NCBI GenBank assembly: GCA_016933575.1
Contig: JAFGAR010000165.1
Span: 1-26,833, forward strand
From: Candidatus Thorarchaeota archaeon
GTDB lineage: Archaea; Asgardarchaeota; Thorarchaeia; Thorarchaeales; Thorarchaeaceae
Length of the DNA stretch: 26,833 bases
Direction of reading: 5' to 3'
A program made the translations under genes and the position numbers. Shown here one piece after another: positions 4,614-26,730 of this stretch (within the stretch, counting starts at the first letter, position 1; every line of letters begins with the position of its first letter). The notes under the pieces were generated by a model. It saw only the letters and a program-made list of their open reading frames with translations, made no database searches and was not told the DNA's origin.

Positions 4614-4631
4614 CTATATCTGCTTCTCTTG
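4614..4631 (-). repeat. Partial copy (stop-codon end) of the 66-bp gene-end repeat
   Basis: ctatatctgcttctcttg matches ctacatctgcttctcttg at 17/18. Minus strand reads QEKQI*. Left flank ctctcaat resembles copies A and B. Confidence 0.6.
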
Positions 4632-4844
4632 CTTCTCCGTATGAACGACCTATACAAGCTTCATAAAAGCATCATTCAGAAATGCTAGTAGGAAACCATT
4701 TGCATTCGTTCATTATATCCGCAACTGAATAAGGAAAGAGAGGCTCAATACTTATTAGTCGGTTTTCCGCCTCGACTGGAAATCTAGTTATTATGATTGT
4801 GTATGAATTGATTTTTTCATAGTAGAAATCAAGAGGTTTGCTAG

Positions 4845-7800
4845 TTGAAGAAGATTCATGTGATACTCATAGTGTTAATGCTATTTCTTGTTCCGATTCT
4901 GCGTCTATATCCTATTGCACCCGAAGAAGAGATTGTGATAAGGTCGGTCTCAACACCAGCATATACAGAACACGCCAAAATCAATGTTACAGATAATTCC
5001 GAATTTGCGTCACAAGGGTTCACTGGAAATGGTATTCTTGGAGATCCATATCTTCTAGAGGGAGTGAATATAACTGATTCAGGTACTCTAATTAATATTC
5101 AAGATACTACAGCCTATGTTGAAATACGTGATTGTTATTTCTCAGGAACTACCCCGATTACCAAAGCAATTGAGCTTAACAATGCAGATCATGTAACTGT
5201 ACAAGGATGCAAATTCTCAGATGTTGGTGGTGCAAATGTTCAATCGAGTAACAACTTCTCGTTCATTGAAAATGAGATTAATGGCACGTCAAATTTTGGA
5301 GTCTATCTCTGGAGCTGTCCTTTCGGGAACATCTCAGATAACATGATAGATGGTAGACCCATTGGCAAGCAAATTGTCCTCATGTATTCTGATGGTTCTT
5401 CAACTAATGGCAATACTCTCTATAATACCGACATCAGTTATGTTAGCTCAAATAGCTCTCTCATATCTACAAATGAGATAATTGAAGGCGGACATATCAG
5501 TGTATCTGAGAGCGAGTATGTGCTTGTTCAAAATAATGTATTAATTGAAAGTATAGGCTACCCTGCAATTAGTATCTGGTCATCATCGTATTGTAATGTC
5601 ACTTCAAATAGTGTACTTGACTGTCGTGATGAAGAAGGTACCTTCAGAGTGTGGGGATCAGCAAATGTGATACTTGCAGACAATATTGTTACGATAACTG
5701 AGTATTCGATTTATACAAATTATGGCTTCAATGTAGAAGAATCATCTGATTGCCTTCTTAAGAACAATTCCGCCTCTTCATATCTTACAGCAGGATTTAG
5801 AGTTCATACATCCAATGATATTACTATGGATAACAACTCTGCACACCACAACACAATTGGATTCATGACCTTCTACGCTAATAACCTATACCTGAATAAT
5901 TGCATAGCAGATGATAATGAATTTGGTTTTGAATTGCATCTGAGCGATAATATCTGGGTGGACTATTGCAGAGCTGAAGACAACACGAAAGAAGGAATCA
6001 AAATCATCGAATGCAATGATGGAAGTATTTTGCATACTTTTGCATTCCGAAATGGATATGATGGATTTGTTATTGGAGGCGTTTCTGAACGTACCTGGTT
6101 TTGGGACTGCCAATCACACAGCAATTCCCGTAATGGATTCTCCATTGAATTGGCTTCCTATACAGAGATTTGGTACTCTCATGCTAGCTTCAATGGATTC
6201 AATGGTTTCGAGATTGTTAGCTCTGATTATGGCCGTTTTGAAACGTGTGGCGCTCAGTATAATGGGGACAATGGCTACCTGTTGGATGATTCGAATCACT
6301 GTATCATTAATCAATGCAGCACAAGTCAATCGACCGATTCTGGATTCTATCTCTGGTATGTGTTTAATATAACACTCACTGAACCCACGAGTGAGAATAA
6401 TGGGGATGATGGAATACAGATAAGATCTTCCTCAGATATTCTTGTGAATGGTGGTCAATTTGCAGACAATGGTCGATATGGCATCTATGTTCGAAGTAGC
6501 GATTCTGTTCTACTTGAGGACAATGAGGTCAGTGGGAGTGATACGGATGATATATTACTGGAGACATCAACTTCATGCACACTGTCAGACAATGTGCTTG
6601 ATCTCAAAGGGCTCTATATCAAGGGAAACTTACTTGTCCACTGGACACATTCAATCTCTGACGATAATCTCGTTGACTTGCAACCTATAAAGTACTACCT
6701 CAGCCAAAATGCCATGACTTACGATTTATCATCCTATGGTCAGGTGTTTCTGGTTGACTGCACAGACATTGAAGCACATTCTGGTAGTTTCAACAACAGG
6801 AGTGTTGGACTAGCCCTCGCCTTCTCTTCGAACTGCCTTATTTATGATATCCTAACAAATGATTGTAGTACGGGAGTGATGATCTTCGAATCGGATACCT
6901 GTTCCGTGGTCTCTAGTGAGTTCTATGGTTCTAGTCTATATCCTCAAGTTGGGATATCATCAATGGACACTCCGAATACGAACATCACTGGTTGTCATTT
7001 TGAGGAACTTTTCCAAGGAATAGTTGTTGATGAATGTCCTTCTTCTCTCTTCCAGTCGAATACTATTTCTGATGTTGTTGGAGGTGGGTTTGATATTGGG
7101 TACTCTCCTGACTCCGTAATAACTCATAATCTATTCACTTCTGTGAATCAAGGAACAATCTCTGTGAAATATTCTGAACGCACTGTGATAGACAACAACA
7201 TCTTGAGCCAAAATCAGTCCGGTGGTATCTCTCTAATATGGAGCGACTATGCTGTGCTTGAAGATAACAATCTCACAGGTGTTGGAATTGGAATCCAGCT
7301 GTTCAACTCAATGGGTATCAGAATAGAGAATAACACGGTCTTTTGTGATAATGTAGCAATACAACTCTATAACGCAAGAGATACTGAGATACATGATAAC
7401 GTGTTAAATGCTGGACTTCTTTTCGAATCTGACCACTTGTTGTACTGGGCTCATGAAATAGAAAACAACACCATTAACGGATTGCCTCTCGGTTATTTTG
7501 AGGGTTTGAATAATACAGTTTTGAATGCAGCAGATTTTGGGCAGGTCATCCTAATTGGTTGTGAGAATGTAACAGTCATTGGCAATAATCAAGATGAGGT
7601 TTCCATACCCATATACCTCGTTTCATGCATCAATGTAAATGTGAGTGACTACCATGTCCTGAACGCCGTTGGGGGAACTAAGATTCTCTATAGTCAACAA
7701 TGCCATGTTCAGAACTTTAGTGTTGAATCATTTGTAGCTGCTGGTTTTTACGTCTATGAGTCTGATACTATAACATTCTCAGGATGTCGTGCAAGCTTTG

Positions 7801-26527: not shown

Positions 26528-26645
26528 TGATTACTACTGGGTTGAGTGTAGGTCCAGTGGATGTCATCTGAAGTTTCCTTTTGGAGAACGACCGCCAGAC
26601 CAGTGTCCAGAATGTGGGAAGAATCTCTATGAATATGAGGGATAA
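26525..26645 (+). pseudogene. Possible zinc-ribbon gene fragment
   Basis: DDYYWVECRSSGCHLKFPFGERPPDQCPECGKNLYEYEG*; no credible start of its own. Confidence 0.35.
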
Positions 26646-26692
26646 GAAAAAGAAGAAGAAGGGAGCATAAGCCCCTTTTATGAAAATAAAGA

Positions 26693-26730
26693 TTACATTT
26701 GCTTCTCTTAGCAGTATGGGAAGCGTTCAG
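26693..26730 (-). repeat. Gene-end repeat copy I (truncated)
   Basis: ttacatttgcttctcttagcagtatgggaagcgttcag reads ERFPYC*EKQM* on the minus strand; hairpin and purine run at 26645-26678. Confidence 0.8.

Follow-up and report, generated by a model that had tools for sequence, protein, structure and literature searches.

The window analyzed here, a 26,833-nucleotide stretch of DNA from a Candidatus Thorarchaeota archaeon (assembly GCA_016933575.1, genome G000), is the whole of contig JAFGAR010000165.1, one of the 215 contigs (C155) of a 3.47-Mb assembly. Over its 26.8 kb it carries three toxin–antitoxin pairs, two CAAX proteases, a 1472-aa β-helix protein, a leucine-rich repeat (LRR) protein, a ThuA-like protein, a Na+/H+ exchanger and other genes, interspersed with copies of a short repeat that is the subject of this work. 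An initial annotation of the sequence had described nine intergenic copies in a single orientation. Using a repeat search and an nhmmer profile of the copies, we recovered the family at all nine start positions, in every case on the minus strand and between open reading frames (ORFs) supported by Pfam (Table 1). Seven copies are full (E 1e-15 to 1e-23) and two are partial, one representing the 3′ part of the unit and the other its 5′ half. Three weaker copies had also been proposed; these share the strand of the other copies and match the model in plausible places, but their scores are marginal (E 0.19 each for 2798–2819 and 4613–4632, E 3.2 for 26784–26802), and from their sequence they are plausible, if unproven, relics. 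The profile search found no copy on the other 214 contigs of the assembly; shuffled control sequences gave 0 matches. An Rfam search matched none of the copies, its only hit in the window being a fluoride riboswitch elsewhere, and no tRNA genes were found. Frameshifts, internal stops, loss of the ATG or replacement of the stop by a sense codon affect several copies.

In the minus-strand direction, the copies encode the peptide ...I-V-M-G/A-R-E-I-F-G-P-E/D-C/Y-L-P-Y-R-Q-E-K-Q-M-stop and end in ...IVMGREIFGPECLPYRQEKQM-stop. In related genomes the identical sequence is the genuine end of a 414–417-aa ORF that directly heads an array of such copies. This ORF is an acyl-CoA dehydrogenase (ACAD) with N-terminal, middle and C-terminal domains according to Pfam, and the repeat starts where the C-terminal domain ends. 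Complete ACAD ORFs that terminate in ...IVMGREIFGPECLPYRQEKQM-stop where the array has its first copy are present in G004, G001, G015, G011, G013, G023, G006, G044 and G045, which bears out the proposal that the repeat derives from the 3′ end of a protein-coding gene, of which it is a displaced copy. A single-copy gene, the ACAD orthologue was detected in 17 of the 28 genomes, where it is often truncated by the contig end; the genes upstream of it are ordinary (an epimerase, a GNAT acetyltransferase and others). In G000 the ACAD head was not assembled, and only paralogues at about 30% identity were found. The copy at 26674–26730 is the nearest to this missing head, which would lie past position 26833. 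A weak early match of the peptide to the N-terminus of Orc1/Cdc6 was abandoned once the ACAD end had been identified as the true source.

Alignments of 35 and then 34 copies gave a unit of ~90–130 nt. It starts ~5 nt before the codons ATC-GTC-ATG, continues through 21 codons and the stop, and is followed by an AT-rich spacer of about 15 nt (TTTCAAATTTCAAAT), a GC hairpin and a T-rich run. The 66-bp repeat described at first is thus present, but the conserved unit is longer and reaches ~60 nt beyond the stop codon into the hairpin and T-run. The hairpin is a simple one of 7–9 bp, most commonly GAGAGAGG-N5-6-CCTCTCTC, and alternative stems occur, each of them self-complementary. A hairpin of at least 5 bp lies ~15 nt past the stop in 122 of 166 copies, with a mean minimum free energy of −14.5 kcal/mol, compared to −9.6 for shuffled sequences; together with the T-run it looks like the terminator of the gene. 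Among 112 ungapped copies, the first, second and third codon positions vary by 0.48, 0.41 and 1.11 bits, respectively, and frame and stop are kept in 86. This codon periodicity and the retention of frame and stop indicate that the copies diverged under protein-coding selection and not by decay in place. A stop-proximal block of 18 nt, CAAGAGAARCAGATGTAG, is conserved at the DNA level, third codon positions included. The outer limits of the repeat are sharp and invariant in ~290 copies from 28 genomes.

The repeat is widespread in this genus. All genomes compared are metagenome-assembled genomes (MAGs) or metagenome contigs. By BLAST, 21 of 24 genomes of the genus contained copies and none of 16 outside it did, and a sequence-only covariance model found 3–32 copies per genome in 26 of 28 genomes of the genus; the two copy-free genomes are also without the ACAD orthologue. 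Scanned against 185,579 species, each represented by one genome, a degenerate 30-nt pattern matched only Thorarchaeota-labelled MAGs, among them Ca. Thorarchaeota archaeon SMTZ1-45 (G004, of the same genus), and a few with other Asgard labels, some of which are contigs already counted in the genus set. The pattern was present in 54 sediment metagenome contigs and absent from the viral contigs of IMG/VR. Two arrays are complete and start at the ACAD stop codon: that on the 669-kb contig G044:C1, with five copies over 16 kb, and that on the 77-kb contig G045:C14, with ~15 copies over 30 kb. Each genome has one such locus, and 197 of 198 copies agree in orientation with the majority on their own contig. 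The genome-wide scatter in both orientations of repetitive extragenic palindromes (REP) or miniature inverted-repeat transposable elements (MITE) was therefore not seen. Overall, the array survey covered 57 loci comprising 601 kb, 221 copies and 161 inter-copy modules.

The stretches between repeats are discrete cassettes that move individually. The 161 modules range from 0.3 to 13.6 kb (median 1.2 kb), and many are found in other species at 80–99% identity along ~100% of their length, next to different neighbours in every pair compared except one; all near-complete inter-species matches (coverage ~0.9 or more) are oriented alike with respect to the repeat. Of 56 inter-genome copy pairs with one common flank (at least 85%), the other flank exceeded 0.85 in none, the closest case being 0.71 with 0.99. 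When metagenome contigs were added, giving 181 unique contexts, 3 pairs shared both flanks, 28 (21 of them ACAD heads) the upstream flank only and 9 the downstream flank only. The first cassette after ACAD differs in every genome compared. The module set is not conserved between relatives, and the breakpoints of gain and loss fall on the repeat. In the cases that allow both to be measured, cassettes are usually more alike than the ACAD genes of the same genome pairs (92.6 vs 82.8%, 85.0 vs 73.0% and 98.4 vs 94.7% identity; median inter-species ACAD identity 78%), suggesting exchange after speciation. In these respects the reading of the locus as a platform for serial gene capture holds. In the two complete arrays, copies farther from the head tend to score lower (Spearman −0.36 for 41 non-independent copies), fitting preferential entry near the head and distal decay.

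Breakpoints were mapped by pairwise junction alignments and by segment-wise identity relative to a random-pair background. In pairs that share the downstream flank, identity is 0.87–0.94 from model position 54 through the hairpin (background 0.57–0.83) and remains at background up to position ~47. CAAGAGAARCAGATGTAG, the spacer and the hairpin (model ~48 onward) therefore move with the downstream cargo, and because they always do so, a cassette consists of gene end, terminator and cargo. Linkage to the upstream flank stops near the left edge of the copy (~0–5) in most pairs, and at ~16, 20, 35 or beyond 46 in others. The segment 1–47 is linked to neither flank and is not specific to a genome (identity 0.722 within vs 0.718 between genomes; permutation p 0.36), which excludes an origin of the 5′ segments by target-site duplication; adjacent copies are only slightly more alike. 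A crossover within the hairpin loop was also rejected, as both arms of each variant stem stay complementary and move with the downstream cargo. Half copies are common, and their 3′ halves begin near 19–22, 35–37 or 54. A single fixed crossover predicts that both linkages switch at the same nucleotide, which is not seen in the small number of pairs available, and homologous recombination appears to fit better. The breakpoints cluster in two near-invariant blocks (6–16 and 54–71), and crossovers mixed over both predict the linkage pattern observed.

At model position ~56 the repeat is adjoined by a conserved element whose end is the palindrome GGTATAGTTGAACTATACATC at L024:11868–11890, L039:9099–9121 and L048:3221–3243. 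This element also occurs without the repeat in G020, and in G015 an integrase-like fragment lies 1.5 kb further on. As it adjoins the repeat in two genomes only (G014 and G015), we rejected it as a part of the array; it is probably a separate insertion and may be the end of another mobile element that inserts into the repeat.

The window contains no recombinase, as the initial annotation had stated, and we found none in the array. Tyrosine recombinases (PF00589) were detected on no array contig and in 8 of 28 genomes of the genus; the 20 without one include a 97%-complete genome. Among five genomes tested, a serine recombinase (PF00239) was present in one and a Y1 transposase (PF01797) in none, and three of the five genomes scanned had none of the three classes. 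The recombinase proposed to act in trans was accordingly not found. Near some array ends, where a search for such a gene had been advised, we observed stray recombinase-like fragments only (G015:C195, an ORF in L165 and, 1.6 kb beyond the array of G044, a resolvase-like piece), and a tblastn search of 1.17 Mb of array DNA with the proteins of the genus's recombinase contigs likewise returned stray fragments and no intact integrase. The sole tyrosine recombinase of G000 lies on C189 (L029:188–1258), a 1.4-kb contig, and probably belongs to an unassembled or unbinned mobile element; since the 27 other genomes of the genus lack an orthologue, it was ruled out as the array enzyme. A 2.7-kb contig of G020 carries three tyrosine recombinase genes in tandem (G020:C116:394–2727), in the arrangement of a recombinase trio. 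With PF00589 missing from 20 genomes, a XerA-type chromosome resolvase also seems to be absent from them or to have diverged beyond detection. Immediately behind the ACAD head, G044 (L109:10352–12172) and G015 (L016:4014–7235) carry a LAGLIDADG endonuclease-like gene and G020 a remnant (G020:C79:2864–3097). The G044 and G015 gene encodes a large protein with a LAGLIDADG-like C-terminal half and is convergent with the ACAD head copy. The family is present in 12 of 28 genomes at 1–6 copies each, mostly away from arrays, and its copy in G000 lacks flanking gene-end repeats; it was therefore set aside as the array enzyme and kept as a lead only.

Taken together, the array is anchored at the 3′ end of the single-copy ACAD gene, and the window is an internal piece of it. 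In the mechanism we propose, a cassette would leave as a circle by recombination between two repeats and would enter by recombination of its own repeat with the ACAD end or with another copy. The cassette adjoining ACAD would give the gene its in-frame last codons and its terminator, which would explain the coding-type conservation of copies that now lie outside any gene, while older copies would be pushed distally and decay. Exchange would most probably be driven by homology through the general recombination of the host, with crossovers in blocks 6–16 and 54–71 and no dedicated integrase. With slightly better than even confidence (roughly 0.55), we regard such homology-driven exchange as the most likely mechanism, ahead of an unseen site-specific recombinase or nuclease. 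More tentatively, and at a little under even odds, the array may be a recombinase-free analogue of the integron, combining a portable gene end and terminator with host homologous recombination, possibly stimulated by a site-specific break, for instance one introduced by the LAGLIDADG-type endonuclease next to three ACAD heads, so that each cassette would repair the anchor gene on landing.

Several observations weigh against homology-driven exchange or limit its support. The 5′ halves end at model positions 44–50 in 13 of 24 cases and downstream linkage starts at 48–54 in 5 of 9; these recurrent break points could mark a specific cleavage or crossover site, and their clustering at 44–54 leaves room for a site-specific cut there. 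The independent pairs are few (7–8 sharing the upstream and 4–9 the downstream flank), and gene conversion could blur a fixed crossover. Copies are ~75% identical to one another, and their longest near-invariant stretch is 18–33 nt, a short tract for the general homologous recombination of many organisms. We saw neither excision circles nor empty sites or population variants; this DNA is present in the source run alone, which was available in contig form only. The contigs assembled from that run (Logan) showed no joints and had loose ends at two copies, and are uninformative about the absence of circles or deletions. Exact-protein look-ups for variants gave no match in one case and, in the other, nothing beyond the contig of the source sample itself, whose gene order is the same. 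Finally, the repeats fragment assemblies, so that some contig joins or bin assignments may be wrong, and recombinases of an unknown family, or encoded on unbinned plasmids or viruses, would escape detection in MAGs. We also observed a short source-run contig (depth 11.8) that joins positions 17711 and 25104 through five extra letters (AAAGA); this bridge may reflect a graph artefact caused by the repeats or a variant with a rearrangement.

Appreciably less probable, though the most substantial of the alternatives, is site-specific accretion, in which a tyrosine or serine integrase, or another recombinase or nuclease encoded elsewhere on a plasmid, virus or unbinned contig, joins an attP-like copy on circles to the ACAD end and mobilizes recombinase-less cassettes in trans. 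Such an enzyme would accommodate the sharp outer limits of the unit, the recurrence of breakpoints at ~44–54 in half copies and linkage starts, the conservation of CAAGAGAARCAGATGTAG down to third codon positions, and the distal decay, which is expected if entry occurs at the head; the stray fragments near some array ends and the LAGLIDADG-like gene or remnant behind three ACAD heads point the same way. Against it stand the distribution of PF00589, the lack of serine and Y1 recombinases in most genomes tested, the absence of the repeat from IMG/VR viral contigs, and the linkage data, as upstream and downstream linkage switch at different positions with segment 1–47 unlinked, where a single crossover predicts otherwise. 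The LAGLIDADG family in turn is multi-copy and mostly found off the arrays, and in G000 it has no gene-end repeat at its flanks.

Two further explanations concern the nature of the repeat itself and the reality of the shuffling. It is very unlikely that the repeat is an independent functional element, either a terminator or insulator or the gene of a 19-aa micropeptide (MAREIFGPDYLPYRQEKQM), borne by many accessory genes, with its likeness to ACAD being secondary and the shuffling due to unrelated means. The ATG-to-stop frame retained in 86 of the 112 copies, the codon periodicity and the terminator-type hairpin and T-run of most copies would suit such an element; however, homology extends upstream of the ATG into ACAD codons (AGAAAATCGTC), several copies are frameshifted, internally stopped or without ATG, each genome has a single locus that starts at the ACAD end and follows the ACAD orientation, and cassette boundaries coincide with the copies. 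The least probable reading is an artefact of assembly or binning, whereby co-occurring strains or species are joined into chimeras at repeats of ~130 bp, which mimics shuffling. Arrays are indeed highly fragmented, many contigs start or end inside a copy, and one contig (L048) has an inverted copy. Nevertheless, this architecture is shared by MAGs that come from many independent studies and assemblers and is also found within contigs of 669, 125, 106 and 77 kb, copies differ by 10–25%, which long k-mers and read pairs can bridge, a 17-kb source-run contig matches the order of the window exactly, and chimeric joins would not yield cassettes bounded precisely by the repeat.

The array resembles an integron in that a single locus holds small cassettes of mostly one or two genes that move individually, toxin–antitoxin cassettes are among them, and a recombination-competent repeat lies at each boundary. 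The integron-like character first assigned to it therefore stands as far as the mobility of the cassettes is concerned, but not in its parts: there is no IntI and no attC, and the cargo faces both ways (103 ORFs with the repeat, 138 opposed), unlike integron cassettes, which are mostly promoterless and co-oriented with a shared promoter. Because they face both ways, the cargo genes must carry their own promoters. The repeat is a sequence-conserved gene end, whereas attC sites are imperfect palindromes whose structure is conserved, with R″/R′ core sites and little sequence conservation, and the array is anchored on a metabolic gene's 3′ end and not on an attI beside intI. In its consensus no GTTRRRY core was visible by inspection, no attC covariance model having been run; being sequence-conserved, codon-periodic and homologous to the ACAD end, the repeat is neither attC- nor CRISPR-like, as had been noted at the outset. 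A survey of archaeal integrons (Ghaly et al, 2022; PMC9668308) does not include the SMTZ1-45 genus in its list of integron-bearing archaeal genomes.

Islands at gene 3′ ends share with the array an intact target gene at one end and partial copies at each element boundary. Tycheposons of Prochlorococcus are tandem islands at tRNA or tmRNA 3′ ends that carry tyrosine or serine recombinases (bioRxiv 10.1101/2020.12.28.424599). As in the array, the incoming element restores the 3′ end of the target and pushes older elements with their partial gene copies inward, and distal remnants degenerate; in contrast, the array targets a protein-coding gene, its units are mostly 1–2 kb, ~160 modules are without a recombinase, and the breakpoints do not appear to be single-site. 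Staphylococcal cassette chromosome (SCC) elements insert serially at the 3′ end of rlmH (orfX) by means of the large serine recombinases Ccr at a site of ~15–18 bp, forming short arrays of units of tens of kb. Likeness lies in the protein-coding 3′ end as target, the direct repeats with the gene end, the composite arrays and the recombinase-less pseudo-SCC elements mobilized in trans, and difference in the Ccr recombinases and far larger units of SCC. Integrases specific for dusA target its 5′ end, make single large islands and always include the integrase gene (PMC4482086). There too attachment is to a protein-coding gene whose coding sequence is restored by the element, although the array uses the 3′ end and consists of many cassettes without an integrase. 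Modules bounded by pdif and integrative mobile elements exploiting Xer (IMEX) use 28-bp dif-like sites and XerC/D, and minimal mobile elements of Neisseria are single cassettes between conserved genes. These recombinase-less modules, which rely on host recombination, are the nearest analogues of homology-driven exchange. The array repeat, however, has no 28-bp dif-like dyad (two inverted 11-bp arms) in its consensus, and most genomes of the genus are without PF00589; the Neisseria elements, for their part, are not repeat-bounded arrays. Our search of the literature found no description of such an array, which behaves like an integron but differs in build from any described system that we found.

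Across the surveyed arrays, 241 cargo ORFs formed 177 clusters, and 150 representatives matched 148 Pfam families. These include NosD/β-helix and β-lactamase-fold proteins, TPR proteins, ABC-2 transporters, TetR regulators, glutamine synthetase and GH130. Some cassettes are defence systems (type I restriction–modification and a ShosA-like protein), and others hold toxin–antitoxin pairs, CAAX proteases, secreted proteins or transporters. In the window (Table 1), the gene pair of cassette 6 occurs together with its repeat copy in G001 and G024 as well, according to blastn and tblastn, and the pair of cassette 8 is the first cassette after ACAD in G001, at 84.6% nucleotide identity. No conserved distal flank could be defined, as the left-end genes of the window are also accessory; ORF 1046–1864 has a homologue on an array contig of G023. 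Since these left-end genes are patchy in the genus, the entire contig is array DNA.

Table 1. Repeat copies, cassettes and other features of the window, listed from the end nearest the expected ACAD head.
Feature	Position	Strand	Evidence
Repeat copy, 3′ part (model 34–90)	26674..26730	-	nhmmer E 1.7e-7; GC hairpin resembling that after intact ACAD in G004 and G001
Cassette 1: AAT/Ntn-hydrolase-like gene 25445–26527 (+)	25233..26673		Pfam PF03417
Repeat copy, frameshifted	25148..25232	-	nhmmer E 7e-17; translation
Cassette 2: ORFs 23500–24444 (+), 24457–24861 (+) and 22942–23196 (-), no clear family	22943..25147		
Repeat copy, CAG replacing stop codon	22861..22942	-	nhmmer E 5e-21
Cassette 3: VapB-like ORF 22557–22781 and PIN toxin 22144–22560	22091..22860	-	Pfam PF01850
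Repeat copy	22014..22090	-	nhmmer E 2e-19
Cassette 4: CAAX protease (Rce1-like) 21160–21975 (+)	21088..22013		Pfam PF02517
Repeat copy, 5′ half (model 2–42)	21047..21087	-	nhmmer E 3e-5
Cassette 5: SGL/β-propeller-like gene 18082–19833 (+), ORF 20154–20984 (+)	17979..21046		
Repeat copy, CAA replacing stop codon	17895..17978	-	nhmmer E 4e-15
Cassette 6: DUF2283 gene 17532–17759 and DUF4258 toxin-like gene 17299–17535	17300..17894	-	Pfam
Repeat copy, top-scoring, begins at DUF4258 stop codon	17211..17299	-	nhmmer E 1e-23
Cassette 7: ThuA-like 843-aa gene 14265–16796, Na+/H+ exchanger 12341–13558, LRR protein 11211–12269	10780..17210	-	Pfam
Fluoride riboswitch in cassette 7	13675..13739	-	Rfam RF01734, 46.4 bits, E 4e-10
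Repeat copy, ATT replacing Met codon	10695..10779	-	nhmmer E 3e-21
Cassette 8: PBECR3 nuclease-like gene 10134–10493 and DUF2283 gene 9952–10146	9799..10694	-	Pfam
Repeat copy, frameshifted	9721..9798	-	nhmmer E 2e-16; translation
Cassette 9: 1472-aa β-helix/NosD secreted protein 4845–9263 (+)	4633..9720		Pfam
Possible relic of 3′ block (CAAGAGAAGCAGATATAG)	4613..4632	-	nhmmer E 0.19, model 53–72, marginal
Probable old cassette: nitroreductase 2925–3500 (+), CAAX protease 3724–4596 (+)	2820..4612		Pfam
Possible relic of 5′ part	2798..2819	-	nhmmer E 0.19, model 12–33, marginal
Further accessory genes: peptidase C25 fragment, ORF 1046–1864, metallo-β-lactamase-fold gene 1910–2722	1..2797	+	

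Three features of the cargo stand apart from the array itself. Within cassette 7, the fluoride riboswitch lies just upstream of the Na+/H+ exchanger-family gene on the same strand, and from sequence this pair resembles a transporter under fluoride control that an Asgard archaeon carries as mobile cargo. The end of the 1472-aa β-helix protein of cassette 9 is encoded by a tandem repeat with an 18-nt period (9046–9126), giving a Thr-rich, mucin-like stalk. Rce1-like CAAX proteases recur in or near arrays: beyond the two of the window, they are found at 27927–28961 of G045:C14 and near 562.6 kb of G044:C1, with mutual identities of 26–33%. Members of the bacterial CAAX-protease family often confer bacteriocin immunity.

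No known prokaryotes are closer relatives of eukaryotes than the Asgard archaea, and the ways in which these archaea acquire genes are poorly understood. The array described here is a genus-wide gene-capture locus of high turnover, with up to 32 copies per genome, that is missed by integron finders and by island finders based on integrases. If exchange is driven by homology, an integron-like engine of the pangenome would be possible with no integrase of its own. Should a recombinase or nuclease that escaped detection drive the array instead, its target is narrowed to a few tens of bases, making the enzyme findable. In either case, the 18-nt block could serve as a handle for polymerase chain reaction or capture, which would sample the accessory gene pool of uncultured Thorarchaeota.

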